Assembly (NCBI GenBank): GCA_040751775.1
Contig: JBFMGD010000008.1
Coordinates: forward strand, 15,431-79,430
Direction: 5' to 3'
DNA from: Bacillota bacterium
GTDB taxonomy: Bacteria > Bacillota > Dethiobacteria > DTU022
Length of the DNA: 64,000 nucleotides
The position numbers and the translations under genes are program-made. Numbering within the stretch: position 1 is the first letter of the stretch; the number at the start of each line of letters is the position of its first letter. Under the pieces are notes generated by a model that was given only the letters and a program-made list of their open reading frames with translations, had not been told where the DNA came from and did no database searches. Shown one piece after another: positions 35,934 to 56,108 of this stretch.

Positions 35934-36120
35934 TAAGTTCTCTCCTTCTGTCTAAAACGGATCGTTAATTCCACAACAGTTTTATGTATTATATGAACCG
36001 GTATAGCCATAATGTCACGGTTGAAAGCATATCCCCATACAATAGAACCAGGGTCAGATTTTGATAGACGAACGTATGCTCATGAAGATAGATTAGTTAT
36101 TGGGGGTATCATTGCACATT

Positions 36121-38076
36121 ATGAAAAAGTGGCTGGTTACCGGGGGGGCCGGTTTCATCGGCTGCAATATGGTTAGGCTGACCATCGCGCAAGGCGGCGT
36201 CCGTATTGTTAACCTCGATAAACTAACTTATGCGGGATGCCTGGAGTCCCTGGCTTCCATGCAAGGCAGCCCCGACCATATTTTTGTCCATGGCAGTATT
36301 GAAGACAAATGTTTGGTCTCGGAGCTGTTAAACAAGTATCAGCCTGACGCGGTGATTAACTTTGCTGCGGAAACCCACGTCGATCGTTCCATCGACGGCC
36401 CCGCGGAATTTATTCAGACCAATATCGTTGGGACGTTCGCACTGCTGGAGGCCGTCCGGGAATACTGGGAGAGTCTGCAAGGTGAACAACGAGATTATTT
36501 CCGTTACTTGCAGATTTCCACGGATGAGGTGTACGGCTCCCTTGACGCCGCGGGATATTTTTCCGAGCAGAACAGGTACGATCCGCGCTCGCCTTATTCC
36601 GCCTCCAAGGCGTCCGCGGATCACCTGGTGCGCTCTTATCACCACACCTACGGTCTGCCCGTGCTAATTACCCATTGTTCTAATAATTACGGCCCCTACC
36701 AGTTCCCGGATAAGCTCATTCCCCTCATGCTGATGAATATTCTTGAGGAAAAACAGCTGCCGGTGTACGGGGACGGGGAAAATGTCCGTGACTGGCTTTA
36801 CGTGGAAGACCACTGCCGGGCCATCCGGAGAGTGTTGGAGCGCGGCCGCAGCGGTGAGTCTTACAATATCGGCGGCAACAATGAAAAAACCAACATTCAG
36901 GTGGTTAATACTCTTTGTGAGTTATGTGACGAGCTGCTGCCGCGCCGGGACGGCCGGAGCCACCGCGGGCAAATCGTTTTCGTGCCGGATCGTCCCGGCC
37001 ATGACCGGCGTTATGCCATCGATGCCGCTAAAATTAAGCGTGAACTGGGTTGGGAGCCTGTGGAAACGCTGGAAACCGGGATGCGCAAAACCGTGGATTG
37101 GTATCTTGATCACAGGGAATGGTGCCGGCGTGTTTGCGCCGGAAAATACGGCGGTGAGCGCCTGGGCCTGGGCCGCCCGGCTCCGCAGGCAAAAAAGAGA
37201 TTAAAAAAAGGGATCATCCTGGCCGGCGGTAGCGGCACCAGGCTTTACCCGCTAACCGCGATCCTAAATAAGCACCTCATGCCGGTTTATGACAAGCCGC
37301 TAATCTATTATCCCTTGACCACCCTGATGCTGGCGGGAATTACGGAGATCCTGGTGATCACTACCCCGCGGGACCGCCGCCTTTTCGAGGAGCTGCTTCA
37401 AGACGGCAGCCGGTGGGGGATCAGTATTCATTACGCGGAGCAGCCCAACCCCGCCGGCGAGGCGCAGGCTTTCCTGATCGGGCGGGAGTTCATCGGCCAT
37501 GATCGCTGCGCGCTAATCCAGGGGGACAATATTTTTCACGGTCACGATCTCGCCGCTTGTTTACAGGAGGCCGCGGCACAAGAAGACGGAGCCACGGTGT
37601 TTGCGTACCGGGTCACGGATCCGGAGCGCTTCGGCGTGGTTGAATTTGACGCGGCAGGCAAGGTCTTAAGCATTGAGGAAAAACCTTTAAGGCCCAAGTC
37701 GAACTATGCCCGGATCGGACTTTTATTTTTTGACAACCAGGTCGTTGGGATGGCCGCCGGCCTTAAACCGTCAGCCCGCGGTGAACTGGAAATGACCGAT
37801 CTTAACAAGCTCTACCTGCAGCAAGGTCAATTACGGGTGAAAAAACTGGGCCAAGGTTTCGCCTGGTTTGATGCAGGCACCCGCCAATCACTGTTGGAGG
37901 CGGCCGTTTTTGTCGAAACAATAGAAAAGTGCCAGGGAATCAAAATTGCCTGTCCGGAGGAGACTGCTTACCGCCTGGGGCTGATTAGCGCCACGCAGGT
38001 GGCAAGGTTGGTTGAACCTTTACAGAAGAACGAATACGGTCAATATCTTCTCAATCTTGTGCAGGGGGTTGATTAA
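36121..38076 (+). CDS. rmlBA: Fused dTDP-glucose 4,6-dehydratase (RmlB) and glucose-1-phosphate thymidylyltransferase (RmlA)
   Basis: N-terminal [16 protein letters not shown]…[12 protein letters not shown] is RmlB. After a KRLKK linker comes [16 protein letters not shown]… (RmlA). The ATG at 36121 is preferred over the TTG at 36100. Confidence 0.85.
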
Positions 38077-40507: not shown

Positions 40508-41267
40508 GTGTTATTTTATGCCCGATCCTTTTTGAGGTGCACTCAGCACAATCTGGTATACGCTAAGCTGATCAAACATATGGGAAAAGAAAAAGCCCGG
40601 CAGTATGCTGAAGCCAATGAATATGCCATTATCTTTATCAAGGAGTTGATTAATCAAAAGAAGATCGACTGTGACTTTTCAAGACAAGCGGCATATGTAT
40701 ATACTCAGTCCGAAAAATACATAAAGCAAATACAAAATGAGGTAGAAGCTGCTTTAAGCCTTGGAATTAAAGCAGCATATATTGAGCAGTTGCCTCTGCC
40801 GTTTGAGATAAAGGCGGCTGAACGTTTTGACAACCAGGCCCAGTTTCATCCCCGCAAGTATTTATTGGCGCTGGCAAAGGAAATACCGGGAGACGGCAGC
40901 CATATATTTGAACAAACCAGGGCGGTAGATTTTCATAATCGAGTTTGCTCAAGAAACATTTGATTACCTGGATATGCCGTTTAGATGGTCAACGCAAGAT
41001 TATACAACCCTGGACGATATTCCTTACGTGGGTAATATAACTTCAAAAAGCCCCAACGTGTACGTAGCCACCGGTTTTAAAAAATGGGGAATGACCAATA
41101 GTACAGTTTCCGCGATCTTGTTAAAGGACTTGATCGTGAAAGGCGAGAGTCCCTGGGCGCCGGTCTATGATCCCTCCAGATTTGAGGGAGATCCCATGAT
41201 CAAAAATTTTGTGAGTATTAATGCCGATGTGATTAAGCATTCAATCAAAGAGGGCATAGAGATTTAG
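40508..41267 (+). pseudogene. DAO-family FAD-dependent oxidoreductase, N-terminally truncated and frameshifted (two fragments)
   Basis: 40508–40963 has the middle region (…FHPRKYLLALAKEI…) and 40974–41267 the C-terminal region (…YVATGFKKWGMTNS…). No Rossmann N-terminus. Confidence 0.6.
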
Positions 41268-41571: not shown

Positions 41572-43128
41572 TTATTGAATTGCCAGGCGTTTGAGCCTTT
41601 GTTGGAGATTTTGTCTGGACATACCCAGGGCTTTGGCTGTTCGCGAAATATTCTGCTGGTTGTTATTCAAAGTCTCGCTAATAATTTCATTTTCTATCTG
41701 TAACAGCAGCTGCTTGAGACTGCGGGACTCACTGTTGTCTTCATAGATAGAGTGGTAACTGTACTTAACCCCTTTATACTTCTGCAGTAGGTGTGCCGGA
41801 ATGTGTCTTAATTCTATTAAGGCGGCGTTTTCTTCAGCAAAGTTCATGGCATGTTCCACGGCATGCAGCAGTTCACGCACGTTCCCGGGCCAACTGTGTT
41901 GATGAAATACGGTCATTACTTCGGGGATCACGTCGCCTACAGCCTTGTTCATAATCTTGTTCGCCTGCCGGATAAAGTGGCGCACCAGGAGAGGCAGATC
42001 GCCCGTGCGATCCCGCAGGGGAGGGATGGTCAAGGTAACCACGGCCAGGCGGTAGTAGAGGTCCTGCCGCAGGCTGTTCCTGTTGATTGCTTCCTGGGGA
42101 TCTGTGTTTAAGGCGCTGATAATCCTCGGATTTACCCGGATATCTGTTTGGCCGCCCAACCTCCGGATTGTTTTTGATTCGAGCACCCGCAGCAATTTGC
42201 TTTGCAGGGAAACGTCCATGGAGCTAATTTCATCCAGGAAAAGGGTTCCCTGGTCCGCTTCTTCAAACAGCCCCGGTTTATCTTCCGACCCGGTAAAGGC
42301 CCCTTTTTTCGTTCCAAAGAGTACGCTTTCCAGCAAAGTGGGCGGGATGGCAGCACAGTTGACGGCAACAAAAGGACTCTTGGCGCGAAGACTGAAATTG
42401 TGTATGCTCTGGGCGAAGAGCTCTTTACCGGTACCGGTTTCTCCATAAATCAGTACCGGTGACATGTTCACGGCAATGCGCCGGGCAAATTCAACAGTTC
42501 CCTGTATCGCGGCGCTTTCTCCGACAATGTCCTCAAAGGTATACTGGGTCCCGTTTTTAGTATGGTTTGTATAGAGCTGTTTTTGCAAATGGATGACAGT
42601 GTCAACCAGCTGCTTCTTCTTGGTTATATCACTGTTTACTGAAACAGCTCCGATAATTTTTCCTTGGAATATAATTGGAAATGTGTTTGTAATGATATTG
42701 ATCTTTGTGCCATTTTTGGTAAAATAGGTTGCCTGGTGGTTTTTCACCGGCTTCCCCGTTTTCAGAACCTTGAGTAGAATACTGCTATCCTCATCAAGCT
42801 GGTAGGCCTCGGTAATATGCTTACCTAAAACATGGGCGGCCTTGTTGTTCTCAATTTGCTCCAGGGCCTTGGAATAAAAAAAGGTTTTACCGGTACTATC
42901 CACAATATGAATACCGTCTTCAATAATATTTAAGGAATGAGCCAGGAGCTCGCGCTCAACTGTTTTAGCCAACCGCGCTGTTTGGTGCCGCCCTATTTCC
43001 GGACCCAAGGTTTTCCCTCCATCAGGTGCAAATATTTTTGCGTTTGTTACTAGATTCGTCGTAACATTCAGAAATCCTGCTCTCTTTTCGGGTGGCAAGA
43101 AATAATTGCACGCAATAATTTCTTGCAC
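41572..43128 (-). CDS. Sigma-54-dependent transcriptional activator (PAS sensor, AAA+ sigma-54 interaction domain, Fis-type HTH)
   Basis: GETGTGKELFA Walker A. A GAFTGA-loop variant region (GAFTGS). C-terminal HTH. Divergent from a -24/-12 promoter. Confidence 0.85.
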   Translation of the reverse strand: MQEIIACNYFLPPEKRAGFLNVTTNLVTNAKIFAPDGGKTLGPEIGRHQTARLAKTVERELLAHSLNIIEDGIHIVDSTGKTFFYSKALEQIENNKAAHVLGKHITEAYQLDEDSSILLKVLKTGKPVKNHQATYFTKNGTKINIITNTFPIIFQGKIIGAVSVNSDITKKKQLVDTVIHLQKQLYTNHTKNGTQYTFEDIVGESAAIQGTVEFARRIAVNMSPVLIYGETGTGKELFAQSIHNFSLRAKSPFVAVNCAAIPPTLLESVLFGTKKGAFTGSEDKPGLFEEADQGTLFLDEISSMDVSLQSKLLRVLESKTIRRLGGQTDIRVNPRIISALNTDPQEAINRNSLRQDLYYRLAVVTLTIPPLRDRTGDLPLLVRHFIRQANKIMNKAVGDVIPEVMTVFHQHSWPGNVRELLHAVEHAMNFAEENAALIELRHIPAHLLQKYKGVKYSYHSIYEDNSESRSLKQLLLQIENEIISETLNNNQQNISRTAKALGMSRQNLQQRLKRLAIQ

Positions 43129-43218: not shown

Positions 43219-43236
43219 TTGGCATCTCTTTTGCAA
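43219..43236 (+). promoter_or_regulatory. Sigma-54 (-24/-12) promoter: tTGGCATctcttTTGCAa
   Basis: GG at 43221–22 and GC at 43233–34 have the canonical 10-nt spacing. Sits 46 bp upstream of the ATG at 43282 and opposite the activator gene. Confidence 0.7.
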
Positions 43237-43281: not shown

Positions 43282-44505
43282 GTGGCAAACATGGCTTATC
43301 TACAGGAAAAACCGATCGCAGTACTGGGTGCGGGCGCCGTGGGCAAAGCCCAGGCGGCTGATTGCACCCTAGCCGGTGCCAGGGTTCGTTTGTGTGACCT
43401 TCACCCGTTTTCAAAGAAGACTCTTTTCGGGGTTCGTGATAGTGGGATTAATTTTTACGGGAGCCAGCTGAACCTTTACAGTTTTGAGCGCTCCGGTGTG
43501 GCCTTTATGGAAAAGGTGACTGAGGATGTAGCGGAGGCCGTTAAAGGCGCGGGCCTGGTTATCGTGGCAACACCGGCTTTCGGTCACCAGGTGTTTTTTG
43601 AAAAATTGATCCCCTGCCTTGAAGACGGCATGGTCATTCATATTTTCCCGGACAACTTCGGGTCGCTGCTGCTGCGCAAAATGATGCGGGAAGCAGGGTG
43701 CGAGAAAAAGGTAATCATCGGGGGTTGGTCCAGCGCGCCTTACGGCTGCCGGGTTGACATAAAAGGCGGCGTCGTCCTTCCCCGGATCCGTGTTTATTAC
43801 CGCGCCATTACCCTGCGAGGGGCCGCCCTCCCCATGGCCGACCAGGAACAGTTCCTGGAAAGCGCCAAATACCTCGGCTCCATGGACGCCATTACTAAAA
43901 ACGGCGGCCTGGATCCCGGCGATACAGTGCTGGATATAGGTTTCAGCAATGTCAACCCCGTTTTGCACTGCCCCGGCACTATTTTAGGCGTAGGGGTGAT
44001 GGAAAACTGGGGCGTGATTTACGGCAAGGACAAATATGATTTTTCTATCTACTCCCATGCGTACTGTCCCTCCATCGCCAAGGTACAGTATGCTTTTTAT
44101 CTCGAAGAATGCGCCCTCGCGGAAGCCATCGGCGTAGGGATCCAGCAGTTTGAGAAGAAGCATTTCTTCCACCGGGAAAGCATATTGGGTGCGGAGTATA
44201 TGGGCCCGGATTATGTCATCCCCTTTGAACAGCACGATTATATCCAATATGGAACAGGTCCCTTTGATATTAACAACCGGTACATTACCGAGGACATTCC
44301 CGTAGGCTGCCATGTTTATCACCAATTGGGTCAAAGATTAGGGGTTAAAACACCGGTGATAGATTCCATGATTAACCTGGCGAATGCGATGATGGAAACA
44401 TGTTATTATGATAAAGGGTACACACTTGCATATCTTGGAATCGGGCATATGGACAAAACAGCATTGAACCGGTATCTTAGGGAAGGCATCTGCGGCGGGG
44501 CATAA
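43282..44505 (+). CDS. NAD(P)-dependent dehydrogenase of the opine-dehydrogenase / ketopantoate-reductase (6PGDH-like) superfamily
   Basis: N-terminal PIAVLGAGAVGKA Rossmann motif. Length (407 aa) and C-terminal helical domain favour the ODH-like type. Confidence 0.55.
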   Translation: MANMAYLQEKPIAVLGAGAVGKAQAADCTLAGARVRLCDLHPFSKKTLFGVRDSGINFYGSQLNLYSFERSGVAFMEKVTEDVAEAVKGAGLVIVATPAFGHQVFFEKLIPCLEDGMVIHIFPDNFGSLLLRKMMREAGCEKKVIIGGWSSAPYGCRVDIKGGVVLPRIRVYYRAITLRGAALPMADQEQFLESAKYLGSMDAITKNGGLDPGDTVLDIGFSNVNPVLHCPGTILGVGVMENWGVIYGKDKYDFSIYSHAYCPSIAKVQYAFYLEECALAEAIGVGIQQFEKKHFFHRESILGAEYMGPDYVIPFEQHDYIQYGTGPFDINNRYITEDIPVGCHVYHQLGQRLGVKTPVIDSMINLANAMMETCYYDKGYTLAYLGIGHMDKTALNRYLREGICGGA

Positions 44506-44552: not shown

Positions 44553-46028
44553 TTGAATTGGGACAGGTCGAGTTGTAGCAACCAGGTTGACAATGCTTCT
44601 GTACAATTTTCGGTCCTTTCCAGGAATCAGCGTGAGCGCATATTCAGCGCCATCCTGGAAGTCCTGGAGCGCACCGGAACTAAAGTCTATAATGAAGAGG
44701 CTCTGGCCCTGCTCAAGAATGCCGGGTGCCGGTCAGACGGCGAAAGAGTATGGATCCCGTCCCGATTGGTGGAAAGGGCCGTTCGTTCAGCTCCTTCCCG
44801 TGTAACCCTGGCTGATCGTAACGGCAAGAGAAGGCTTTTTTTGGAAGGCAATAACACTTACTTTGGTCCAGGCCCGACAAACCCTTACTTTATTGACCTG
44901 GAAACGGGAGAGCGGCGCAAGGTCACCAAGGAGGACGCCTGCAATGTTGCCACGCTGGTGGACTGTTTGCCTGGTATGGATTTCTGCATGTCCTTGGCCA
45001 GTATTTCCAATGTGACGCCTGTACTGGCGGATGTACATGAAGTGCATGCCATGCTTACATCTACTACGAAACCGGTTGTTACCTGGGCTTTTAACCTCCA
45101 AAACAATGAGACTATCGTCTCCATGTGCGAAGCCGTGGCAGGCAGCGCGGCGGAGTTAAGAGACAACCCGTTTCTAGCGCTCTATGCGGAACCGGCCACA
45201 CCCTTAAAGCATCCCAAGGAATCCCTGGACAAACTTTTTTACATGGCCGAAAAGGAGCTTCCCATTATTTACACCCCGGGGGTCCAGGGTAGCGCCACCG
45301 CTCCCGCTTCCCTGGCCGGGGTGATCGTCATAGCGGCCGCAGATTGCCTGGCGGGGCTGGTCATGCACCAGCTAAAGAAGGAAGGGGCTCCCTTTATTGC
45401 CGGTGGGGTCACCACCAATATGGATATGAAAACCATGATTCATTGTTATGCTTCTTCTCCCGACTTTTGCCTGATGCACGCCGGTTATACCGAGCTGATC
45501 CAACACCTCAACCTGCCTATGTTCAGCACCGCCGGCTGCAGTGATTCCAAGGTGCTGGATATGCAGGCGGCCATCGAGTATGCCCTCTCTATATACAGCG
45601 CCGCCTTAAGCGGCGCCAACCTGGTCCATGATGTCGGTTTTCTGGAATCGGGGATGTCCGCCTCGTTGCAGGGCCTGGTGATGGGTGATGAAATCATCAG
45701 CTACGTGCGCAAAATGGTGCAGGGGATAAGGGTCGACAGCGATACCCTGGCCCTGGATGTAATCGATTCCGTGGGGCCCGGGGGGCATTTCCTGCAGGAG
45801 ATGCATACGCTGCAAAACTTTAAAACGCAATTTTGGCTGCCCAAGTTGATTAACCGTGAGAATTATGCGTCCTGGGATCTGAACGGGAAAATTACCTACG
45901 ACCAGCGGCTCACGGCTAAGGCGCGGCAGCTGCTCCAGGAGCATCAACCACAGCCTCTGGGGGATGATTTAAAAGCCGAATTGCTGAGAATCTTGAACCG
46001 TGCGGAAACGGAAAAAGCAGGTATATAA
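44553..46028 (+). CDS. MttB-superfamily (non-pyrrolysine) quaternary-amine:corrinoid methyltransferase homologue 1
   Basis: TTG start after a GAGGAGGG RBS. N-terminus …SRNQRERIFSAILEVLERTGTKVYNEEALALLKNAGC… matches the MttB-family signature. No in-frame TAG. Confidence 0.8.
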   Translation: MNWDRSSCSNQVDNASVQFSVLSRNQRERIFSAILEVLERTGTKVYNEEALALLKNAGCRSDGERVWIPSRLVERAVRSAPSRVTLADRNGKRRLFLEGNNTYFGPGPTNPYFIDLETGERRKVTKEDACNVATLVDCLPGMDFCMSLASISNVTPVLADVHEVHAMLTSTTKPVVTWAFNLQNNETIVSMCEAVAGSAAELRDNPFLALYAEPATPLKHPKESLDKLFYMAEKELPIIYTPGVQGSATAPASLAGVIVIAAADCLAGLVMHQLKKEGAPFIAGGVTTNMDMKTMIHCYASSPDFCLMHAGYTELIQHLNLPMFSTAGCSDSKVLDMQAAIEYALSIYSAALSGANLVHDVGFLESGMSASLQGLVMGDEIISYVRKMVQGIRVDSDTLALDVIDSVGPGGHFLQEMHTLQNFKTQFWLPKLINRENYASWDLNGKITYDQRLTAKARQLLQEHQPQPLGDDLKAELLRILNRAETEKAGI

Positions 46029-46058: not shown

Positions 46059-46910
46059 ATGAAAAAGAGAAAAACTGTCGTTGATTTTATGAAAATGAAA
46101 AAACAGGGAGACCAGGTTGCCTGGATCACCGCTTACGAATACCTGGCCGCCTCCTACGCCGAGCAGGCGGGTATGGACATGGTCCTGGTGGGCGACTCCC
46201 TGGGTATGGTTCTCCTGGGATACGAAAGCACTATTCCCGTGACCATGTCTGACTGTATATCCCACTGCCAGGCGGTTCGCCGCGGAGCCCCCAACACCTG
46301 GGTTATCGGAGATATGCCTTTTCTCTCTTACCAGCAGTCCGACCAGCAGGCCGTTGAAAACGCCGGCCGGTTTTTCAAGGAAGCCGGGGTGGATTGCATC
46401 AAGCTTGAGGGTGGGCAGCGGGTCGCCGACCGGATTAAGGCCATCACGAACGGCGGTATGCTGGTGATGGGACATATCGGCCTGACTCCCCAAAGCTCCG
46501 GCCAGCTGGGCGGCTTTGTCGCGCAGGGCCGGGATGTGGGCAGCGCGCGGGAAGTGATCAAGGACGCCCTGGCCGTTGAGAAGGCGGGGGCCTACGCTTT
46601 GCTGGTGGAGGCGGTGCCGCCCGAGGTAACCGCCTTTATGCGAGAGAGGCTCTCTATACCGGTTTACTCCATCGGCGCCGGCCCCTCGGACGGGCAGCTC
46701 TTGATCTCCAGCGACCTGTTAGGTAAGTTCCAGGCTTTCACCCCCAAATTTGTCAAAAAATACGCCAATCTTGCGGAAATTGAAATTAGCGCTTACCGGG
46801 CCTACATTGCAGATGTAAAAAGCGGGGCGTTTCCGGCGGAGGAACACGTTTATCATATTACTGAACCGCCGGAAGCCTTTGCGGAGCTGTTTAAAGAGTT
46901 GGCCGAGTAG
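46059..46910 (+). CDS. panB: 3-methyl-2-oxobutanoate hydroxymethyltransferase (PanB) family protein
   Basis: VGDSLGMVLLGYESTIPVTMSDCISHCQAVRRGAPNTWVIGDMPFLSYQQS…IKLEGG is a strong PanB signature. Confidence 0.8.
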   Translation: MKKRKTVVDFMKMKKQGDQVAWITAYEYLAASYAEQAGMDMVLVGDSLGMVLLGYESTIPVTMSDCISHCQAVRRGAPNTWVIGDMPFLSYQQSDQQAVENAGRFFKEAGVDCIKLEGGQRVADRIKAITNGGMLVMGHIGLTPQSSGQLGGFVAQGRDVGSAREVIKDALAVEKAGAYALLVEAVPPEVTAFMRERLSIPVYSIGAGPSDGQLLISSDLLGKFQAFTPKFVKKYANLAEIEISAYRAYIADVKSGAFPAEEHVYHITEPPEAFAELFKELAE

Positions 46911-46942: not shown

Positions 46943-47653
46943 GTGGTCCATCGCGGGCAAGAAAAGAATGCCGAGATAGGGTGTAAAGGGGGTATAGAGG
47001 TCATAATGGAAGGTGTCACCGTTTTTTTTCAATACTTGTGGGAGATAAGAGATTCCCTGATGCTGTTGACTGCCCGCCACGCCTGGATGTCCCTGGCCGG
47101 GGTGGTATTGGGTACGGTAACCGCCGTTCCCATCGGCGTTTTTATCTCCCGAAGGCCGGGGCTGGCTAACTTCACCATAGATGTGGCGGGAATGCTCTAC
47201 ACGATACCTTCCCTGGCTTTGCTTGGTTTTCTGTTACCCTTTGTCGGTTTGGGGTGGCTGCCTACGATTCTGGCTCTGGTCATCTACTCGTGGCTACCGG
47301 TCTTACGAAACACCTGTACAGGTATTATGAATGTAGATCCCGCCGCAAAAGAAGCGGCCAAAGGAATGGGGGCCACATCGTTTCAACTGCTGCTCCGCGT
47401 TGAGCTGCCGCTGGCTTTACCGGTGATTATGGCAGCCATTCGAACCGTCGCCGTGCTTACCGTGGGTATTACCATTATGGGGGCGCTCGTCGGCGCCAGG
47501 GGTTTGGGCGAGCTGATCTTTCAGGGGCTTTCGATGATGGACAATCGCCTCATCTTGGCGGGAACGATCCCGGTGTCGGCCATGGCGCTTCTGTTTGACC
47601 AGGTGTTGGGTCTTCTAGAGCGAAAGCTCAAGGTTGTAACCGGTAGTGCATGA
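46943..47653 (+). CDS. OpuC/ProW-type quaternary-amine ABC transporter permease 1
   Basis: Multi-helix hydrophobic profile with ABC-TM1 EAA-like loop. Gene order permease–SBP–ATPase–permease. Start may be internal (47004 or 47060). Confidence 0.75.
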   Translation: MVHRGQEKNAEIGCKGGIEVIMEGVTVFFQYLWEIRDSLMLLTARHAWMSLAGVVLGTVTAVPIGVFISRRPGLANFTIDVAGMLYTIPSLALLGFLLPFVGLGWLPTILALVIYSWLPVLRNTCTGIMNVDPAAKEAAKGMGATSFQLLLRVELPLALPVIMAAIRTVAVLTVGITIMGALVGARGLGELIFQGLSMMDNRLILAGTIPVSAMALLFDQVLGLLERKLKVVTGSA

Positions 47654-47706
47654 TGCTGCCGAATATCAATACATCAGTATCATACCAAAAAGAGGAGGAT
47701 TAACGT

Positions 47707-48609
47707 ATGAAGCTTTTCAAAGTTACCGCGTTACTGCTTGCTGTTTTGTTGATGTCGCTGCTGTTTGTAGGGGGTTGTGGTGAACCTGAGCAAGCCGAAG
47801 AGTATACGGTGGTCATCGCCGGCAAAGGATGGGCTGAAAACATGACCCTGGCCTACATGGCTGCTCTGCTCATCGAAGCGAACACGGACCTTAAAGTTGA
47901 CACCACTAAGGTTAATATGGGCCCGACGGAAATGCTTCACCCCGCGCTGGTGGAAGGACAGATCGATCTTTACCCCGAGTACACCGGCACCGCCTGGATG
48001 GTTGTATTAAAGCAGGAAGTCATCCAGGATCGGGTGGAGATTTTTGAAAAGTCGCGTGATGCTTACCAGGAACAATTCGGCATTACCTGCTTAGATCCCC
48101 TGGGCTTCCAAAACACCTTTGCCATCGCCATGCCTCGTGAAAAAGCGGAAGAACTGGGCATTACCACACTTTCCGAACTGGCGGCATTTCCCGATTTAAC
48201 TTTTGTCGGCGATTCTACCACGTTTACCCGGCCTGACGTCTACCTGGGCCTGGCGGAAACCTACGGCTTAAATATGAACCAGGTGATTGTTGATACCGCC
48301 TTCTTCTATGAAGCGCTGGCCCAAGGCCAGGGTGATGTAACGACCTGCTTCTCAACTGACGGCCGCTTAAAGGAATATGGTTTTGTCGTTCTCGAAGACG
48401 ACAAGAGCTTCTTCCCGCCGTACGATGCAATGTTCGTAGTACGTACTGAACTCCTGGAGCAATATCCAGAAATAGCCGAAGCCCTGGCCCCGCTCCTTGG
48501 GACCATCGACGGCGAGACAATGACCGAGTTGAACTACAAAGTTGAAGTAGAACAACAGGAGCCAGAGGATGTAGCCAGAGAGTTTTTGAAAGCGAGAGGG
48601 CTCATCTAG
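47707..48609 (+). CDS. Glycine-betaine/choline/carnitine-type substrate-binding lipoprotein
   Basis: Signal peptide with lipobox LFVGGC. OpuAC/OpuCC-like fold (…YPEYTGTAW…). Confidence 0.75.
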   Translation: MKLFKVTALLLAVLLMSLLFVGGCGEPEQAEEYTVVIAGKGWAENMTLAYMAALLIEANTDLKVDTTKVNMGPTEMLHPALVEGQIDLYPEYTGTAWMVVLKQEVIQDRVEIFEKSRDAYQEQFGITCLDPLGFQNTFAIAMPREKAEELGITTLSELAAFPDLTFVGDSTTFTRPDVYLGLAETYGLNMNQVIVDTAFFYEALAQGQGDVTTCFSTDGRLKEYGFVVLEDDKSFFPPYDAMFVVRTELLEQYPEIAEALAPLLGTIDGETMTELNYKVEVEQQEPEDVAREFLKARGLI

Positions 48610-48625
48610 GCAACAGAGAGGCGGT

Positions 48626-49735
48626 ATGGGTATGACCCGTGAAATCAGTGTAGAACTGCAAAGTGTCAGCAAGCTATACGGCACGGATAAGGTGGTCGAT
48701 GAGGTCAGCCTGACCATTGAAAAGGGTGAAATCTTTGTCTTGATCGGCCCTTCCGGTTGTGGGAAAACCACCACTTTAAAGATGATCAATCAGCTGATAC
48801 CGCATACTTCCGGCCAAATACTGGTTAACGGGGTGGATGTGACGAAGCTCGACGCAGTCGAGCTTCGTCGCTCCATTGGCTATGTTATCCAGTATATTGG
48901 TCTGCTGCCTCACCTTACCATCCAGGAGAATATTACCTTTGTGCTCCAGCTGAAAAAATGCTCCAAAAAGGAGCAGAAAGAACGGGCCCACGAGTTGATT
49001 GAGACCGTGGGGCTTCCTGTTTCTTACCTGAAAAGGTACCCCCGGGAACTGAGCGGGGGGCAGCAGCAGCGGGTCGGTGTGGCCCGGGCCTTGGCCGCCA
49101 ACCCGGAGATCCTGCTGATGGATGAGCCTTTTGGCGCGGTAGATCCCCTTACCCGGGAACAGTTGCAAAATGAACTGCTGAGGCTGCAGGAAACCATTCA
49201 GAAGACCATTGTTTTCGTAACCCACGATATGCAGGAAGCTTTTAAAGTGGGCAACCGTATCGGAATACTGCGGCAGGGCAAACTGGTCTGCCTGGGAACG
49301 GCCATGGAGATCGTCAAGTCGGCAGACGAGTTTGTCCAGAACTTTATCGGTCAAGGCGCCCTTTTCGAGGTGTTGGATACTATCCCCATATCCAGGGTTA
49401 TGCAAAACAATGTCCCCTCCATATCGGAAAATGGAATTGTCAAGCGCGACGGTGATCAAATAAACGGATGGGAAAACGTGTTCGTGCTCGATGCTAAGGG
49501 CGCTTGCCTGGGACTCGTACCACTGGCAGAGTTGGGACCCGATGGGGCGGTATCGCCGGAGAAAATTCACCCGCTCCCCCCCGGTTACCCTCCCGGCATC
49601 TCAGTAAAACAAGCGGTGGAGAAGATGCTATGGGGCGGCCGGACATGGCTTCCGGTAGTTTCAGATGAAGGTCATTTCATGGGCATCGTCACGTTTCAAT
49701 CCTGCGCCGGACTGCTGTTTCAGGAGAGGAGGTAG
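48626..49735 (+). CDS. ABC transporter ATP-binding protein with C-terminal tandem CBS domains (OpuCA/OpuAA-like)
   Basis: GPSGCGKTT Walker A, LSGGQQQRV signature, Walker B LLMDEPFGAVD. CBS-type C-terminus. Confidence 0.85.
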   Translation: MGMTREISVELQSVSKLYGTDKVVDEVSLTIEKGEIFVLIGPSGCGKTTTLKMINQLIPHTSGQILVNGVDVTKLDAVELRRSIGYVIQYIGLLPHLTIQENITFVLQLKKCSKKEQKERAHELIETVGLPVSYLKRYPRELSGGQQQRVGVARALAANPEILLMDEPFGAVDPLTREQLQNELLRLQETIQKTIVFVTHDMQEAFKVGNRIGILRQGKLVCLGTAMEIVKSADEFVQNFIGQGALFEVLDTIPISRVMQNNVPSISENGIVKRDGDQINGWENVFVLDAKGACLGLVPLAELGPDGAVSPEKIHPLPPGYPPGISVKQAVEKMLWGGRTWLPVVSDEGHFMGIVTFQSCAGLLFQERR

Positions 49736-49738
49736 GGA

Positions 49739-50389
49739 ATGGCTTTATTTGCTGATGCCTGGGCCTATTTCACCCTCAAAAGAGAGTTCATGTTCCTGGT
49801 TCTTAAAGACCACGTTACACTGGTTCTCTGGGCAACCCTGTTTACTATCCTCATCGGCGTGCCCGTGGGCATCGTCATCGCCCGGACCAAACGATTAAAA
49901 GAGATCGTGCTCGGCTTTGTCGGCATTCTTTACACCATTCCCATCCTCGCCTTTTTCGGATTTCTTATTCCGATCATGGGCATCGGAACCAGGCCGGCCC
50001 TGGTGGCCCTGATCATATACGGTCTTTTGCCGGTTATCCGCAACACATGCGTCGGGATTAACCAGGTCCATCCGATGACCAAGGAAGCAGCCCTGGGTAT
50101 GGGGGCCAGCAGCCTGCAGCTGCTGTTCCGGGTAGAGATTCCGCTGGCCTTTCCGGTCATTTTTGCCGGAATCCGAACAGCCCTGGTGATGAATTTTTCC
50201 CTGGCTACCTATGCCGTTTTTATCGGGGCGGGGGGCATGGGTAGGATTATTATGCAGGGGATCCGCACCTATAACACCGGGATGCTGCTGGCTGGAATAT
50301 TACTGGTGGTCATTACCACGGTCTTATTGGACCGTTCCGTCGGCCGGGTAGACCATGGTATCCAAAAGCGTTTTAGCCTGGGAAAATAA
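49739..50389 (+). CDS. OpuC-type ABC transporter permease 2
   Basis: Paralogous to permease 1 (…LPVIRNTC[TV]GI…V[DH]P…KEAA[KL]GMGA[TS]S[FL]QLL[LF]RVE[LI]PLA[LF]PVI…). Confidence 0.8.
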   Translation: MALFADAWAYFTLKREFMFLVLKDHVTLVLWATLFTILIGVPVGIVIARTKRLKEIVLGFVGILYTIPILAFFGFLIPIMGIGTRPALVALIIYGLLPVIRNTCVGINQVHPMTKEAALGMGASSLQLLFRVEIPLAFPVIFAGIRTALVMNFSLATYAVFIGAGGMGRIIMQGIRTYNTGMLLAGILLVVITTVLLDRSVGRVDHGIQKRFSLGK

Positions 50390-50405: not shown

Positions 50406-51404
50406 GTGAGCGAATATGTCCTGCACTATGTCGATGCCCACGTGGGAGGGGAGTCTTTGCGCCTCATTCTGCGGGGCCCGCAGCTCAAGGGAAGCACATT
50501 GTTGGAAAAAAGGGACCATATGATTAAAAATTATGATTTTATCCGTACCGCCATTGTGCTGGAGCCCCGGGGACATGACGACATGTACGGGGCGGTGGCG
50601 GTTGACCCCTGTCACCCCGGCGCAGACCTGGGTATTATCTTTATTGACGGCGCGTTTTATAACAACATGTGCGGCCACGGCTCCATTGCCATCGCCACCA
50701 TTGCCGTTGAACTAGGCCTGGTGCCGTCAAAAGAGCCGGTTACCGATGTGGTCTTGGAAACGGGAGCCGGCCTGGTAACCGTTCAGGTAGAGGTGAAAAA
50801 TGGTAGTGCCGGGGAAGCCGCCTTAAAGGGTGTGCCTTCCTTCCTCTACCGTGCCGGCCAGTCCATTCAGCTGCCGGGGCAAACCGTATCGGTGGATATC
50901 GGTTTCGGGGGCAACTTTTTCGTCATCGTCGAAATGGACCACCTGGGCCTTAAGCACTCTAAAGAAAATATCCCGGATTTTATCCGCTACGGGCTGGCCA
51001 TTCGGGAAGCAGTCAACCAAAATATTCCCGTCGCCCACCCTGAAAAACCGTACATTAACTCCGTTGAAGATATCCTCTTTGTTAAAGAACCGGACTTTCC
51101 CGGCGATACCCATAAAAGCCTGGTCGTCCTGGGGCATGCCATGGTGGACCGCTCCCCCTGTGGAACCGGGACCTGCGCCCGCATGGCCATGCTTTATGCC
51201 GGGGGAAAGCTCGGAAAGGGAACCCCTTTTTATCACGAAAGTATCACCGGCGCACTCTTTGAAGGGATGGTATTGGGTGAGACCGCAGTGGGAGATTTCC
51301 CGGCCGTACTCCCCCAAGTGAAAGGGCGGGCTTTTATTACCGGGATCGGAAATCTGTTGATTAACTCCGCCGACCCCCTCAAGTACGGCTTTTCGCTTCG
51401 CTAA
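50406..51404 (+). CDS. Proline racemase / 4-hydroxyproline epimerase family enzyme (both catalytic cysteines present)
   Basis: GTG start after GAGGAGG. NMCGHGS (first Cys) and DRSPCGTGTCARMA (second Cys) are conserved. Confidence 0.8.
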   Translation: MSEYVLHYVDAHVGGESLRLILRGPQLKGSTLLEKRDHMIKNYDFIRTAIVLEPRGHDDMYGAVAVDPCHPGADLGIIFIDGAFYNNMCGHGSIAIATIAVELGLVPSKEPVTDVVLETGAGLVTVQVEVKNGSAGEAALKGVPSFLYRAGQSIQLPGQTVSVDIGFGGNFFVIVEMDHLGLKHSKENIPDFIRYGLAIREAVNQNIPVAHPEKPYINSVEDILFVKEPDFPGDTHKSLVVLGHAMVDRSPCGTGTCARMAMLYAGGKLGKGTPFYHESITGALFEGMVLGETAVGDFPAVLPQVKGRAFITGIGNLLINSADPLKYGFSLR

Positions 51405-51444: not shown

Positions 51445-52872
51445 ATGACAACTCGAAAGCTATCACCATTGAAGCTCTTAATGGAAGGAGACCTGACGCG
51501 GATTCATGATGCGTCGGTTAAGGTTCTTGAAGAGACTGGGATGGTGTTTCAAAAACGGGAAGCTTTGGAGATATTTAAAAAACACGGAGCCAAAGTTTCC
51601 GGTAATACAGTCTATATCCCCCGGAAAATGATTGAAAATGCATTGGCCCAGTGCCCCAGAACTGTGAAATGGCGGGCGAGGAATGAAGAGAAATCCATCG
51701 AAGTGGGAAGAGGATTTCATGTTCAGGCGGGCGGAGGATCCGTCTATATCCAGGATGCTGACCATGGCCGCCGGAAGAGTAAGTTGGTGGATTTCACCAA
51801 CATGCAAAAGCTTTACCAGTCCAGCGACGTCATCGATGTAGTTGGGTTCACCCCGGTGGACGCAAGCGACTTAAATCCGGAGTGCAAGCACCTGCATATG
51901 CAACACGCGATCCTGTTTAATACGGATAAGCCGATTCACGGACATGTATGTGGTGGGAAAAAAGCGGGCCAAATGTTGGATATGGCCGAAATCGCCTTTG
52001 GCGAAGAGGGTTTGATGAAGAATCACCACGTGATGGGGCTTTCCATAAATACCATTTCCCCCTTAGGTTTCGGCGAAGAACAAATCGATACCCTGATGGA
52101 ATATGTCAGCCGGAATCAGATTATTATTGCTGCTCCTTTGGCGATCGGCGGAGTAAGCGCGCCTTTGAGTCACGTGGGGATGACGGTCCTGGTGAACGCG
52201 GAAATCCTGGCCATGATCGTTCTGGTGCAGTTGCTCAATCCGGGAAACCCGATCATTACTGGGCCTTCTTCATCATTTGCCGACATGAAGACAGGCGCTT
52301 ACTGCGCGGCTTCACCCGACGGGATGCTGCATCTCATCACCCATATTCAATTAAGCCGGGATCTTTACCGCCTTCCTACCCGCGTGCTCGGCGGTGCCTG
52401 TGATTCCAAGGCAGTTGACGCCCAGGCCGGATTCGAGACCATGCAGAACCTGATGCTGAGCATCTTTGCCGGTTCCGATATGATTGCCCATGCCAGCGGG
52501 GTGTTGGATGGGCTCATGACCATATCCTACGAGAAGATGATTATTGACGAAGAACTGGTTCGCAGGGCAAGATATTTAATCACGCGACCGGTGGAAGTAT
52601 CAGACCGGGAGCTGTCAGTTGATGTAATCGGCGAAGTGAGTCCCGGAGGCAGCTATCTTTTGCATCACAGCGTCTACGAAAAATGCCGGGATCTGTTCCA
52701 GCCGGGGGTATCAGGATGCTCCAATTTCGGGGAGCAGCAGGGCAGCAGTGATATCATGATGCAGGCCAACAAGACCTTCAAGGATCGGTTGGCGAAGGCG
52801 CCGGAAACGCTCCTTGATCCGGTGGTGGACCTGGAATTAAGGTCTTACATGGATCGCTTAATGAACAGTTAA
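51445..52872 (+). CDS. MttB-superfamily (non-pyrrolysine) methyltransferase homologue 2
   Basis: …LTRIHDASVKVLEETGMVFQKREALEIFKKHGAKVSGNTVYIPRKMIENAL… is the MttB-family N-terminus. Uninterrupted frame. Confidence 0.8.
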   Translation: MTTRKLSPLKLLMEGDLTRIHDASVKVLEETGMVFQKREALEIFKKHGAKVSGNTVYIPRKMIENALAQCPRTVKWRARNEEKSIEVGRGFHVQAGGGSVYIQDADHGRRKSKLVDFTNMQKLYQSSDVIDVVGFTPVDASDLNPECKHLHMQHAILFNTDKPIHGHVCGGKKAGQMLDMAEIAFGEEGLMKNHHVMGLSINTISPLGFGEEQIDTLMEYVSRNQIIIAAPLAIGGVSAPLSHVGMTVLVNAEILAMIVLVQLLNPGNPIITGPSSSFADMKTGAYCAASPDGMLHLITHIQLSRDLYRLPTRVLGGACDSKAVDAQAGFETMQNLMLSIFAGSDMIAHASGVLDGLMTISYEKMIIDEELVRRARYLITRPVEVSDRELSVDVIGEVSPGGSYLLHHSVYEKCRDLFQPGVSGCSNFGEQQGSSDIMMQANKTFKDRLAKAPETLLDPVVDLELRSYMDRLMNS

Positions 52873-52883: not shown

Positions 52884-54317
52884 TTACAGCACATTCTCCG
52901 GATTCCAAATGCCAATGGAATCATAGGTGTCTTTTAGTTTTTGCAACTCCCTGATATACTCGCCGGGGGCCATCTTCAGGAACATCGTTTTTTTCAATTT
53001 CCCTATGCCGTGCTGCGTTTCAATTTTCCCTTCTTTGCCTGCGAACTCTTCCGCCCATTGCTCCAGCAAATACCGGCCTTTTTCATATTGAAGATAATTT
53101 ACGGGCAGCAGATTTACATGGAGACGATTTTCGCCGATGTGGCCGAAAATTGATGCTTTTAGCCCTGCCGCCGCCAGGTCCGTCTCGTATTTGGTAATCG
53201 CCGCCGGCAAGTCAATATTCTCCAGGCCTATGTACGATTCCAACTTGGTTAGGCGCGGCTCCTCCTGTCTTACTCTTTCCGTAAATAGATTGGCGCACTC
53301 GGCTGCCGCATGGCGAAAAGCTCTCAGCTTTTCAACCTCTGCCTCCCCGGCGACCGCCCAGGCCCGGTCCGGGTCGCTGTTTGACCTCAGGGCCAGGTCC
53401 ATTAACATTTCAGCTATCTCTTCAACGGCCTCCTCCTGCCGGTTGTGAAATTCAAGGTAAATTGATGCGGTAACCGTCGAATCGATCTCCGGGATATGTT
53501 TTAAACTTGTAAACCCTGCTTTTCTCTCCCGGATCAGCTCTAGGGTTGCTCCGTCGATATATTCCGCCGCGGCAAGGCCTGCGCTCTCCAGCTGCAAATC
53601 CGCTGCGACTAGGTAATCAGCAAAGGCAAACAGCGCTTCTTTCTCTTCAAAAAAAAAGGTGAAGCCCCATATTTCCTTGGGCTTCGGCTGCAGCTTTAAG
53701 GTAAGCTCCGTGAAGATGCCGAACAACCCCTCGCCGCCCAGGAACAGGTCCAGTAAATCTATATGGCCCCCAGGGAAAGGGATCAGGGTCTTGCCCCGCT
53801 GTAGTTCCAGCACGGCCCCGCTGGAGAGGGCTATTTTAGCCCCTGCAACATACTCCCTGGCTTCCCCGTACCGGCGGGAGCAGGGTCCCCTGGCGTTGCA
53901 CGAGGCGACGCCTCCCGCGGTCGCGGAACTTTCAGTGGGGTCGGGCGGCCAGCACAGCTCCTCTTCATATCTCAGCATTTTCAACTCTCGATTCAGTTCC
54001 CGCAGGGTAATGCCCGGTTCAACTTTAAGCAGGGTCTCCCCCCGGCCGGTGCTGATGAAGCGTTTGACCCGGTTCATTTTCGACAGGTTGAGGATATGGC
54101 CTCCCGGTGGAACCGCCCCTCCGGCAATACCGGTTTTGCCACCCTGGATGGTAATGGGGACATTTTTCTCCCTCATCCGGGCTACAATTTCTGCGATCTC
54201 CGGCTCAGACTGGGGAAAAGATATGCTTGCGGCTGTTCCGGCCAGCTTTGATTCGTCGGTTAAATAGTCGCGGTATTTTTCTGCCAACGGGAAGATTAAC
54301 GATCCCGCCATAAGCAT
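52884..54317 (-). CDS. FAD-binding PCMH-type oxidase (GlcD/D-lactate-dehydrogenase-like) 2
   Basis: FAD_binding_4 region (…PITIQGGKTGIAGGAVPPGGHILNLSKMNRV…). Adjacent to etfA. Confidence 0.75.
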   Translation of the reverse strand: MLMAGSLIFPLAEKYRDYLTDESKLAGTAASISFPQSEPEIAEIVARMREKNVPITIQGGKTGIAGGAVPPGGHILNLSKMNRVKRFISTGRGETLLKVEPGITLRELNRELKMLRYEEELCWPPDPTESSATAGGVASCNARGPCSRRYGEAREYVAGAKIALSSGAVLELQRGKTLIPFPGGHIDLLDLFLGGEGLFGIFTELTLKLQPKPKEIWGFTFFFEEKEALFAFADYLVAADLQLESAGLAAAEYIDGATLELIRERKAGFTSLKHIPEIDSTVTASIYLEFHNRQEEAVEEIAEMLMDLALRSNSDPDRAWAVAGEAEVEKLRAFRHAAAECANLFTERVRQEEPRLTKLESYIGLENIDLPAAITKYETDLAAAGLKASIFGHIGENRLHVNLLPVNYLQYEKGRYLLEQWAEEFAGKEGKIETQHGIGKLKKTMFLKMAPGEYIRELQKLKDTYDSIGIWNPENVL

Positions 54318-54331
54318 CTCCCCTCCTTTAA

Positions 54332-55297
54332 TCAGCGCTTTTTATCCCGGATAAGCAGCTTTACCAACTCATCCAGGACCGGTTCATAATCATCAATAAC
54401 AGCCACATCCGCAGCCTGCACCAGGGGGGCCCCTTCATCGGTATTGATGGCGATGATCCGTTCGCTTTGCTCGATGCCGGCAAAAAAAGCGGCGGCTCCT
54501 GATACACCGGCGGCGATACACAACCGGGGTTTGGTGATGGCACCGGATACCCCGACCAGCCGGTGCAGCGGAGTCCAGGCGCTCATGGCCACCGGCCGGC
54601 TTACTCCCAGCTCTGCACCGATTACCCCGGCGACCTCTTTGAGACGGCCGGCTTTTTCCTTGCTTTTTACGCCCCTGCCGGCCACCAGGATAAATTGAGC
54701 CTGCTCCAGGCCGCCGCCGGTTTCCGCTTCTGTAAATTGATAATCTTCGCCGCATCCCTCTTTTGCAAAGCCGGCCATATCCACTTCCGATATCTCTTGA
54801 ATGTTTTTTCTGGTGGAAGATTGAACAGCGGCTGAGCCTTTGGCAATGGAGAGGCAAAAAGGTTTTTTACGAAGCAGAAACTTGCCCTGCAGGTAATTGG
54901 CGTAAACCGCCTTGTAACAGATGAACTGATTTTCCACCAACTCCAGCTTATTGACAGCCACCAAGGAACTTCCCCCCATCCGGTAGGCGAACCGGACCGC
55001 CATTTCGCTGCCGAAAAAGTTGCCGGGGAATAGATATAAATCTGCAACCCGGTCCCGCTCCAGCGTTGTCAAGATCTCCAGGGCGCTTTCCGGGTAATGC
55101 CTTTTAACCTTGACCATCTTGAGAGAGGAGGTCGGCGAGTGGGCGATTAAATCTTGTTTCCGGCTATCGTTGCTGTAAAAAATGATGCTGTTGCCCGCCG
55201 TAGGCCCCTCCGGGCAAGCGTCCAGGAAGCCCCGGACCTCTCCTGCCTGGGAGTGAAAGTCCCCTGAACAGCCGTTTAAAACCGCCGTACATTTCAT
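54332..55297 (-). CDS. etfA: Electron-transfer flavoprotein alpha subunit
   Basis: C-terminal …CIAAGVSGAAAFFAGIEQSERIIAINTDEGAPLVQAADVAVIDD…. Start placed at MKCTAV, giving an ATGA overlap with etfB. Confidence 0.8.
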   Translation of the reverse strand: MKCTAVLNGCSGDFHSQAGEVRGFLDACPEGPTAGNSIIFYSNDSRKQDLIAHSPTSSLKMVKVKRHYPESALEILTTLERDRVADLYLFPGNFFGSEMAVRFAYRMGGSSLVAVNKLELVENQFICYKAVYANYLQGKFLLRKKPFCLSIAKGSAAVQSSTRKNIQEISEVDMAGFAKEGCGEDYQFTEAETGGGLEQAQFILVAGRGVKSKEKAGRLKEVAGVIGAELGVSRPVAMSAWTPLHRLVGVSGAITKPRLCIAAGVSGAAAFFAGIEQSERIIAINTDEGAPLVQAADVAVIDDYEPVLDELVKLLIRDKKR

Positions 55298-56106
55298 AAC
55301 TGCTCCAACCACTCTTTCAGATACGCATCGTAGAGGGCCCTGGCTTTTTCAGCCGGGGTGGCCCCCTGGACAATTACCCCTTCCCTGTTGCGGTCGATTA
55401 GCGCCAACCCCTGCAGTTCACAACCGGTATCGAAGCAATTAAAAATACCCTGGAGGCCAAACTGCTCCAGGTCCATAACCTCGATCTCTTTTTTTCCGCA
55501 GGCGTATTTTTCCTTGAGGGTCGGCACTCTCAGGTAAGCGTTCGGCACATTCCCCACGGCCAGGACGCAGGGGGTTCTGACTGTCTGTTGCACCAGGCCG
55601 CCGTCCACCATGGCTGTAACCTTGAGACGGCTTGCTTCGCCGGGCTCCACTCTGGTGACCTGGGTAATACACGGCCACTTGAGCATTTCGGCCGCCAGCA
55701 GGGGTGTCTTGGCGTTGTCGCCCACGCCGCTTTGCCGGCCCATGATCAGTAAATCCTGTTTGCCGTAAAGTTCCACGTAACGGCATATTACCGAGGCTAC
55801 AGCCTCCGGTGAAAACCTGGCCTCAACACTGTTTTCAATTCTTACCGCCTTGGCAAATTGCAAGGCGTATAAAGTTTTTAAATAGATATCCGCCTTCTCG
55901 TCGCCGATGGTTAGCGCCGTGAGGTTAACGCTCTGACCGGCGCTTTCGGAAAACCGCAAAGCCATTTCAAGAGCACTTTCATCATAGGCATTGAGAATTG
56001 TTTTCGCATAGCCGGTCTCCACCCGTAAGAGACTGTCTATAAACCAGTCGCTTCCGGCGAGCTGATCCAGGTCGGGGACCACTTTGAAACATACCAGTAT
56101 ATCCAT
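55294..56106 (-). CDS. etfB: Electron-transfer flavoprotein beta subunit
   Basis: MDILVCFKVVPDLDQL… is an EtfB N-terminus. Confidence 0.8.
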   Translation of the reverse strand: MDILVCFKVVPDLDQLAGSDWFIDSLLRVETGYAKTILNAYDESALEMALRFSESAGQSVNLTALTIGDEKADIYLKTLYALQFAKAVRIENSVEARFSPEAVASVICRYVELYGKQDLLIMGRQSGVGDNAKTPLLAAEMLKWPCITQVTRVEPGEASRLKVTAMVDGGLVQQTVRTPCVLAVGNVPNAYLRVPTLKEKYACGKKEIEVMDLEQFGLQGIFNCFDTGCELQGLALIDRNREGVIVQGATPAEKARALYDAYLKEWLEQL

Positions 56107-56108
56107 GA

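Follow-up and report, generated by a model that had tools for sequence, protein, structure and literature searches.

The stretch of DNA analysed here (the window, 64,000 nucleotides from a Bacillota bacterium) contains at positions 46059-46910 of the forward strand an open reading frame (ORF) with an ATG start and 283 residues, which encodes a PanB-family hydroxymethyltransferase and lies within an operon for methyl transfer and betaine uptake. This placement was proposed by the first-pass annotation, and it is borne out by the profiles, the fold and the intergenic gaps, as well as by the fact that the arrangement is kept in many independent loci. As described below, the gene codes for a familiar kind of enzyme and belongs to a separate clade, the conserved operon association is not described in the searchable literature, and the function proposed here is tentative.

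By every sequence and fold test available, the ORF encodes a bona fide PanB-family enzyme. The protein aligns with positions 2-259 of the 259 in the Pfam profile PF02548 (Pantoate_transf), scoring 330.8 bits against a cut-off of 28.7, and it passes both the NCBIfam panB equivalog TIGR00222 (304.7 bits, cut-off 207.55) and NF001452 (326.9 bits, cut-off 272). Its closest PDB sequences are all PanB, with 1m3u at the top (212 bits) and then 1oy0 and 1o66. The AlphaFold model (predicted local distance difference test, pLDDT, 83.9) is a (beta/alpha)8 barrel of the PEP-mutase/isocitrate-lyase superfamily, the same fold as the ketopantoate hydroxymethyltransferases (KPHMT, PanB) of E. coli (1m3u), M. 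tuberculosis (1oy0) and N. meningitidis (1o66/1o68), and in a Foldseek search against the PDB the top 28 matches are PanB structures with TM scores of 0.75-0.90, followed by methylisocitrate lyases. The protein is 42% identical to E. coli PanB and shares with it the motifs LVGDS and HxGLTPQS. In E. coli PanB the residues binding Mg2+ or the 2-oxo acid are D45, S46, D84, K112, E114, H136 and E181 (PMC13488298); in the alignment to 1m3u all seven have equivalents in the window protein, and these equivalents are invariant in the complete sequences among 55 aligned members of its clade, where most of the residues of the pocket motifs are also kept in all 55 members examined. The encoded enzyme is thus of the ketopantoate-hydroxymethyltransferase type and is predicted to be catalytically intact.

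As for its surroundings, the Pfam and NCBIfam matches confirm that PanB is situated between an MttB homologue and an OpuC-type transporter, with all genes of the operon on the forward strand. The operon begins with an NAD(P) oxidoreductase of the opine-dehydrogenase family (43282-44505), followed by a putative non-pyrrolysine MttB-superfamily methyltransferase of group I (44553-46028; PF06253, MTTB) and by PanB itself. Next comes the whole OpuC/ProU-type ABC transporter (46943-50389), composed of a first permease (46943-47653; BPD_transp_1), a substrate-binding protein (47707-48609; OpuAC, 207.9 bits), an ATPase (48626-49735; ABC_tran, and NCBIfam TIGR01186 proV with 329 bits against a cut-off of 326.6) and a second permease (49739-50389; BPD_transp_1). 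The last two genes are a proline-racemase-family enzyme with both catalytic cysteines (50406-51404; Pro_racemase) and a second putative non-pyrrolysine MttB, of group III (51445-52872; MTTB). Upstream of the first gene, a candidate sigma-54 type -24/-12 element, TGGCATCTCTTTTGC (43220-43234, forward strand), is recognised by consensus match only; it is intergenic, has one mismatch to TGGCAC-N5-TTGC and lies 48 nucleotides before the first gene of the operon. Divergently on the reverse strand (41572-43128) is a PrdR-like sigma-54 enhancer-binding regulator with PAS, AAA+ and Fis-type HTH domains, which matches Pfam Sigma54_activat with 213.9 bits as well as PAS_9 and HTH_8, and whose top NCBIfam match is PrdR with 383 bits, under the cut-off of 795. 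A counterpart of this regulator occupies the equal position in L004, L013, L090, L092, L096-L100 and L112 (L numbers denote the compared loci, in which genes are ORF picks clustered by BLAST).

The gap between the group I MttB and PanB is 30 nucleotides long and carries a Shine-Dalgarno-like AAGGGTG, the gap between PanB and the first permease is 32 nucleotides long with the Shine-Dalgarno sequence GAAGGAGG before the permease, and no convincing terminator was found between the operon genes. Because of these features, PanB is very probably co-transcribed as part of a sigma-54-type operon which would import a betaine-like compound and which holds two non-pyrrolysine MttB genes. Scanning the main ORFs of the window (mostly at least 150 residues) against Pfam revealed no gene for a corrinoid protein or for the pterin-binding methyltransferase MT2, and tblastn revealed none either. 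The first-pass annotation had reasoned that the gene would be a simple biosynthetic one caught in an operon if it were the only panB of the genome and panC and panD lay just outside. As regards the second half of this statement, the same Pfam scan gave no Pantoate_ligase, Asp_decarbox or ApbA, and tblastn with E. coli PanC and PanD gave no match in the window. Association with panC and panD is typical of the PanB family without defining it, and it is lacking at this locus; differently from known PanB genes, the present one has no such neighbour and is probably co-transcribed with methyltransferase, transporter and racemase genes instead.

The first gene of the operon had been described as a reductase directly upstream of PanB, resembling either ketopantoate reductase or opine dehydrogenase. 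In fact it stands two genes upstream, and of the two resemblances that to opine dehydrogenase holds (PF02317 Octopine_DH, 112 bits; top PDB match 1bg6, N-(1-D-carboxyethyl)-L-norvaline dehydrogenase, CENDH, 80 bits), while against the PanE model TIGR00745 the protein scores 17 bits (cut-off 141) with the Rossmann N-terminus alone aligned. A ketopantoate reductase pairing with PanB was therefore rejected, as the protein is of the opine-dehydrogenase family and is also kept in operons without PanB.

The two MttB frames of the window are uninterrupted, without any in-frame UAG. The first matches the Pfam MTTB profile with 325.9 bits and MtgB (2qne/9yce) with 217 bits, and the second gives 368.8 bits and, with MtgB 9yce, 268.8 bits. 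The MttB proteins of the compared loci sort into three orthologous groups (I, II and III), which differ at the substrate site. In MtgB, R312 and H348 bind the carboxylate of the substrate, R312 being present in every characterised member (PMC13080624). The group III protein of the window retains both residues; in the group I protein H348 is retained, while the glycine-betaine residues Y97, R312 and F356 of MtgB are changed to P, F and G, and for this reason glycine betaine was rejected as the substrate of the MttB adjacent to PanB. Among orthologues (including L001:80-1519 and L092:6993-8459) the R312 position is F or W in group I and Y in group II, so that these two groups, unlike MtgB and the other characterised members, have no carboxylate-binding Arg. 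This pattern suggests that the groups act successively on different N-methylation states of the substrate.

The racemase matches the Pfam profile PF05544 (Pro_racemase) with 345 bits, its top PDB match is the proline racemase 7pb3 (315 bits), and its identity to proline racemases of solved structure is about 50%. Its motifs NMCGHGS and DRSPCGTGT, with both catalytic cysteines, align with 7pb3 and 6j7c, and owing to these cysteines the alternative of a 3-hydroxyproline dehydratase was rejected. The score against the NCBIfam proline racemase model is 357 bits, under the equivalog cut-off of 556, so that its substrate may be either proline or hydroxyproline.

The association of MttB with PanB recurs in a variety of gene orders. 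For example, L001 reads MttB-MttB-PanB-OpuC-racemase-MttB; L013 and L014 read OctDH-MttB-PanB-OpuC-racemase, where OctDH is the opine-type dehydrogenase; and L004 reads MttB-PanB-LIV-type ABC-OCD-OctDH-MttB-racemase. In L090 (Ca. Formimonas warabiya) the order is OctDH-MttB-Asp/Glu-type racemase-MttB-PanB-LIV-MttB, and L112 (Dehalobacterium) has the same order plus MT2 and a corrinoid protein, while L092 reads OctDH-MttB-MttB-PanB-LIV-racemase-corrinoid protein-OCD-Pterin_bind MT2. In L099 and L100, RACo, corrinoid proteins and MT2 are present and PanB follows the racemase. PanB hence stays in the operon through rearrangements in which it comes after a group I MttB, a group II MttB or the racemase, and in which the transporter is of the OpuC, LIV or Opp type. 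Since the related loci hold the corrinoid protein, the pterin-binding MT2 and RACo, the system would be one of standard corrinoid-dependent methyl transfer to tetrahydrofolate (THF). The idea that PanB replaces a missing MT2 was rejected, for L092 and L112 have a Pterin_bind MT2 together with PanB, and the residues for the 2-oxo acid and Mg2+ are all kept. In two of these loci (L099:12595-15741 and L100:16465-19631) the genes after PanB encode a FolC-like Mur-ligase of the folylpolyglutamate synthase type and a redox repressor of the Rex type.

A reciprocal search, in which metagenomes were queried with the group I MttB independently of PanB, yielded 13 orthologous loci. PanB is present in L094/L104, L095/L105, L099 and L100 and as a fragment in L093, and it is absent from L096, L097, L098, L101 and L103. 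The core of OctDH, group I MttB and racemase persists in L096-L098, and in L101 and L103 transporter genes come directly after the group I MttB. PanB is thus a frequent yet facultative member, found in about half of the orthologous operons. Such a facultative presence, together with the pairing with FolD seen elsewhere in the clade, would fit an auxiliary detoxifying role, in which some step of the operon, for instance an oxidative removal of the last N-methyl group, releases formaldehyde and PanB traps it on THF or on a 2-oxo acid; moreover PanB enzymes can use free formaldehyde without THF (PMC7611260; Sugantino 2003, cited in PMC13488298). Nevertheless we regard this as highly improbable, as no known formaldehyde producer is found in the loci, opine dehydrogenases oxidise the carbon bearing the carboxylate and not the N-methyl group, and the two or three MttB paralogues already cover the methyl groups.

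Beyond the MttB operons, the window protein belongs to a widespread clade. Over 120 protein clusters share 70-86% identity with it, and a scan of one genome per species gave 80 PanB loci with an identity gap, namely 63-77% in one group against at most 55% in the rest. The clade is distributed over Bacillota, Synergistota, Desulfobacterota and Chloroflexota metagenome-assembled genomes. A phylogeny of PanB had been suggested as a check, and in an approximate neighbour-joining tree the high-identity group forms a distinct clade with all PanC- or PanD-adjacent PanBs outside it. Context was counted for 47 full-length clade members from species-representative genomes, and none of the 47 loci has PanC or PanD within 10 kb; for comparison, PanC is adjacent in 8 of the 26 PanBs outside the clade. 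The most frequent neighbour, directly beside PanB in 31 of the 47, is an uncharacterised family of TIM-barrel proteins, followed by FolD (6/47), MttB (4/47), an aminotransferase (3/47) and IlvD (2/47). The clade is therefore distinct, widespread and unlinked to panC and panD, and its usual partner is an uncharacterised TIM-barrel protein.

Members with 71-76% identity occur in such a pair with the TIM-barrel protein, or beside FolD, IlvD, aminotransferases or a GDH-like dehydrogenase. In the 74%-identical members P0018 and P0038, found on many contigs, PanB and the TIM-barrel protein make a two-gene unit inside the housekeeping region ileS-divIVA-sepF ... spoIVA-gpsA-plsY-der. Such neighbourhoods, the high variety of contexts and a canonical, strongly conserved sequence (mean column identity 80% in the clade alignment) are what would be expected if the gene were simply the normal pantothenate PanB of its lineage, with scattered pan genes, so that its adjacency to MttB is meaningless. 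We consider this rather unlikely, because PanB is retained in the operon through several independent rearrangements, and it would be costly to have the only copy of an essential gene midway along an inducible sigma-54 operon. Furthermore, the clade keeps 63-77% identity across phyla, clearly more than the 40-48% that panC-linked PanBs share with the window protein, and divergent double copies are found within one genome: Anoxynatronum buryatiense has two clade copies, just 76% identical and in differing contexts. In Moorella, the clade PanB lies beside a true IlvD (728 bits) and a second PanB to which it is 47% identical. The locus in question (L006:5113-12778, Moorella thermoacetica Y72) lies by a PrpR-type sigma-54 regulator and comprises a LarA-like nickel-pincer isomerase, the IlvD, the non-clade PanB, a LUD-domain protein, the clade PanB and an MFS transporter.

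The usual partner comes in a form of 312 residues (unk312) and a form of 420 residues (unk420), which are related to each other (hhalign 73%, E = 3e-5), with copies for example at L047:10917-11855, L009:7019-8281, L108:10891-12153 and L113:8638-9897. It has no sequence match in Pfam, NCBIfam or the PDB; its model (pLDDT 89) is a TIM barrel with a weak likeness to class II aldolases. No copy is present in the window, and the idea that the partner is a distant MttB relative, replaced by MttB in the operon, was rejected with an hhalign probability of 2%. About 20 loci (e.g. L047:8374-20496; in Gudongella, Soehngenia, Tindallia, Anoxynatronum and Alkaliphilus) have a unit of PanB, the TIM-barrel protein and a GDH-like dehydrogenase, with neighbours that include a DoeA-like protein (470 bits with the ectoine hydrolase model), DoeB2/CpsA-like amidohydrolases, an EutA-like racemase, an IclR regulator and a TRAP transporter. 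These loci may be an anaerobic cluster for degradation of the ectoine type.

In comparison with known PanB, the clade differs in its pocket motifs, where on the numbering of 1m3u IPVIGIGAG becomes IPVYSIGAG (I200Y, G201S) and DGQILVMHD becomes DGQLLISSD, and further by V179L, C182A and I212L and by having a small residue at position 215. At the C-terminus a conserved helix of about 17 residues is added, in which F274, F278 and E280 are invariant. These clade-specific pocket changes give some substance to the suggestion of the first-pass annotation that the enzyme might run in reverse and release a C1 (one-carbon) unit, possibly with a new 2-oxo-acid specificity. As a lyase, it would convert a 2-oxo acid whose C3 carries a hydroxymethyl or aminomethyl substituent into a smaller 2-oxo acid and methylene-THF, thereby bringing skeleton carbon into the folate pool; the candidates are 4-hydroxy-2-oxobutanoate, 4-amino-2-oxobutanoate and ketopantoate, derived from the operon or from the other clusters of the clade. 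PanB catalyses a freely reversible reaction, and the family shows promiscuity in its choice of 2-oxo acid (PMC7611260; Sugantino 2003, cited in PMC13488298). Moreover, the clade is never linked to panC or panD, and several of its neighbours make 2-oxo acids (the GDH-like dehydrogenase, the aminotransferase and the IlvD-family dehydratase) while FolD would oxidise the released C1 unit; in particular, the unit of PanB, unk312 and the GDH-like dehydrogenase lies beside DoeA/DoeB-like genes of the ectoine type, where diaminobutyrate could give 4-amino-2-oxobutanoate.

Against such a lyase, the proline skeleton yields no acid of this kind, since oxidation of D-proline leads to pyrroline-2-carboxylate, which is equivalent to 5-amino-2-oxopentanoate. 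In addition, about half of the orthologous operons lack PanB, the same enzyme (at 71-76% identity) occurs in housekeeping regions, and by its score the neighbouring IlvD is a true dihydroxy-acid dehydratase. As for the pocket, mutation of I202 alters the nucleophile scope of PanB (PMC7611260), yet in the clade I202, which lines the nucleophile pocket, is retained, and I212 is changed just to Leu. Taken together, we find the lyase unlikely but still worthy of serious consideration. A broader form of the proposal, which we find decidedly doubtful, is that the clade as a whole is not a pantothenate enzyme and forms in anaerobes a THF-dependent C-C lyase or C1 shuttle acting on 2-oxo acids derived from osmolytes (betaines, ectoine) or from other sources; it could then convert an acid with a C3 hydroxymethyl or aminomethyl group into pyruvate, or another 2-oxo acid, and methylene-THF, often with the TIM-barrel partner. 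An action of PanB on 2-oxo acids derived from proline, such as pyrroline-2-carboxylate, or in the dehydration or aldol cleavage of 4-hydroxy-pyrroline-2-carboxylate, was rejected, as nothing observed speaks for it and it is hard to reconcile with an enzyme that is nearly identical in unrelated contexts.

The reading that we prefer, tentatively and with somewhat less than even confidence, is that PanB performs its ordinary chemistry, in which a C1 unit passes between a small 2-oxo acid and methylene-THF, and thereby gives the operon an optional connection to the folate pool. Proteins of 71-76% identity in all settings most likely catalyse the same reaction, and since the canonical site is intact, this reaction would be C1 transfer of the PanB type. 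The neighbours across the clade fall into two themes, namely the supply of folate C1 units (MttB/MT2, FolD, FolC) and the supply of 2-oxo acids (IlvD, aminotransferase, amino-acid dehydrogenase), which, judged by their annotation, can supply the two substrates of PanB, methylene-THF and 2-oxoisovalerate. In the present operon a betaine-like compound would be imported and demethylated by the MttB proteins, and the methyl groups would pass to THF through the corrinoid protein and MT2. The substrate may be proline betaine or N-methylproline, whose skeleton would end as L- or D-proline, because the racemase shares about half of its residues with solved proline racemases and has retained the two catalytic cysteines. 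PanB would enolise a small aliphatic 2-oxo acid with the help of Mg2+ and exchange a C1 unit reversibly with 5,10-methylene-THF, thereby serving as an optional, co-induced link from the C1 pool filled by demethylation to the metabolism of 2-oxo acids. As the best guess, the direction would be C1-consuming, from methylene-THF and 2-oxoisovalerate to 2-dehydropantoate and free THF, in other words a pantoate branch induced by the substrate which would also return free THF as the methyl acceptor. An auxiliary, co-induced role of this type is favoured because proline offers no hydroxymethyl-2-oxo acid and because half of the orthologous operons do without PanB; PanB is thus probably not a step in the breakdown of the betaine skeleton.

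The regulated pantoate branch, one of the functions put forward by the first-pass annotation, is accordingly the best fit to the canonical site and to the neighbours elsewhere, and several points weigh against it. As the window has no panC, panD or panE and none of the 47 clade loci has a PanC or PanD gene in the surrounding 10 kb, the branch has no visible continuation. The conserved pocket changes and the C-terminal extension could mean a different 2-oxo acid. The double copies in A. buryatiense and the cross-phylum identity look more like a mobile accessory function, and the benefit of ketopantoate synthesis at a time when betaine is available is not obvious. These weak points, that is, the missing continuation, the changed pocket, the mobile multi-copy clade and the thin rationale, keep the reverse or new-substrate reading alive beside the preferred one.

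With respect to known systems, the operon resembles those of the MttB superfamily, such as MtgBCA of Desulfitobacterium hafniense and MtpB, MtcB, MtyB and MthB of Eubacterium limosum. The MttB proteins are likewise predicted to be non-pyrrolysine ones, the related loci hold a cognate corrinoid protein, a pterin-binding MT2 and RACo, and THF would be the final methyl acceptor (PMC13080624). In the searchable papers on the described MttB systems there is no mention of PanB, an opine dehydrogenase or a proline racemase, and no paper in the searchable full-text literature was found that ties MttB systems, betaines or ectoine to PanB. The operon also shares its logic with the aerobic Hpb pathway for proline betaine and hydroxyproline betaine in Paracoccus and Rhodobacter, that is, uptake and stepwise N-demethylation, with 2-epimerisation or racemisation and then oxidation of the D-imino acid (PMC3950512). 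The enzymes differ at each stage: Hpb employs Rieske and flavin demethylases where MttB and the corrinoid protein stand here, an epimerase of the enolase type where one of the proline-racemase type stands here, and a flavin D-amino-acid oxidase in place of the NAD(P) opine-type dehydrogenase. Nothing in the aerobic pathway corresponds to PanB.

Several other features of the window were also observed. Between a glycosyltransferase gene and the sigma-54 regulator, two adjoining short ORFs on the forward strand (40508-41267), the first of 151 residues and matching the central part of a DAO-type FAD oxidoreductase, the second of 97 residues, are together perhaps a decayed gene. Convergent to the operon, on the reverse strand (52884-60675), lies a cluster of two GlcD-like FAD oxidases, EtfA/EtfB, an FGGY kinase, an SDR protein and a GlpP-type antiterminator; its Etf/FAD-oxidase part shows synteny, lying next to the MttB operon also in L013, L014, L017, L094, L104 and L105, and the cluster could be either an unrelated glycerol-type operon or functionally linked to the MttB operon. 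Further upstream, a single forward-strand ORF of 658 residues (36100-38076) joins a domain of the dTDP-glucose-4,6-dehydratase type to a nucleotidyltransferase domain, inside a large glycosyltransferase and polysaccharide cluster at about 12-40 kb, and may be a true fusion or the result of a wrong upstream TTG start.

Operons of the MttB superfamily are mined to predict the use of quaternary amines by anaerobes, gut bacteria included, and so the meaning of an additional member is of practical concern. If the gene is a plain PanB, it would be a cofactor gene under substrate control and of modest interest. If instead the lyase or shuttle reading is true, it would represent an undescribed route by which skeleton carbon, besides the N-methyl groups, enters the folate C1 pool. 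More generally, if PanB is functional in this type of operon, the picture of three components, MT1, corrinoid protein and MT2, misses a link between folate C1 units and 2-oxo acids. The finding also calls for caution in annotation, for pipelines call all members of the clade 3-methyl-2-oxobutanoate hydroxymethyltransferase and would infer pantothenate prototrophy from a clade that has no panC or panD neighbours and whose usual companion is an uncharacterised protein family.

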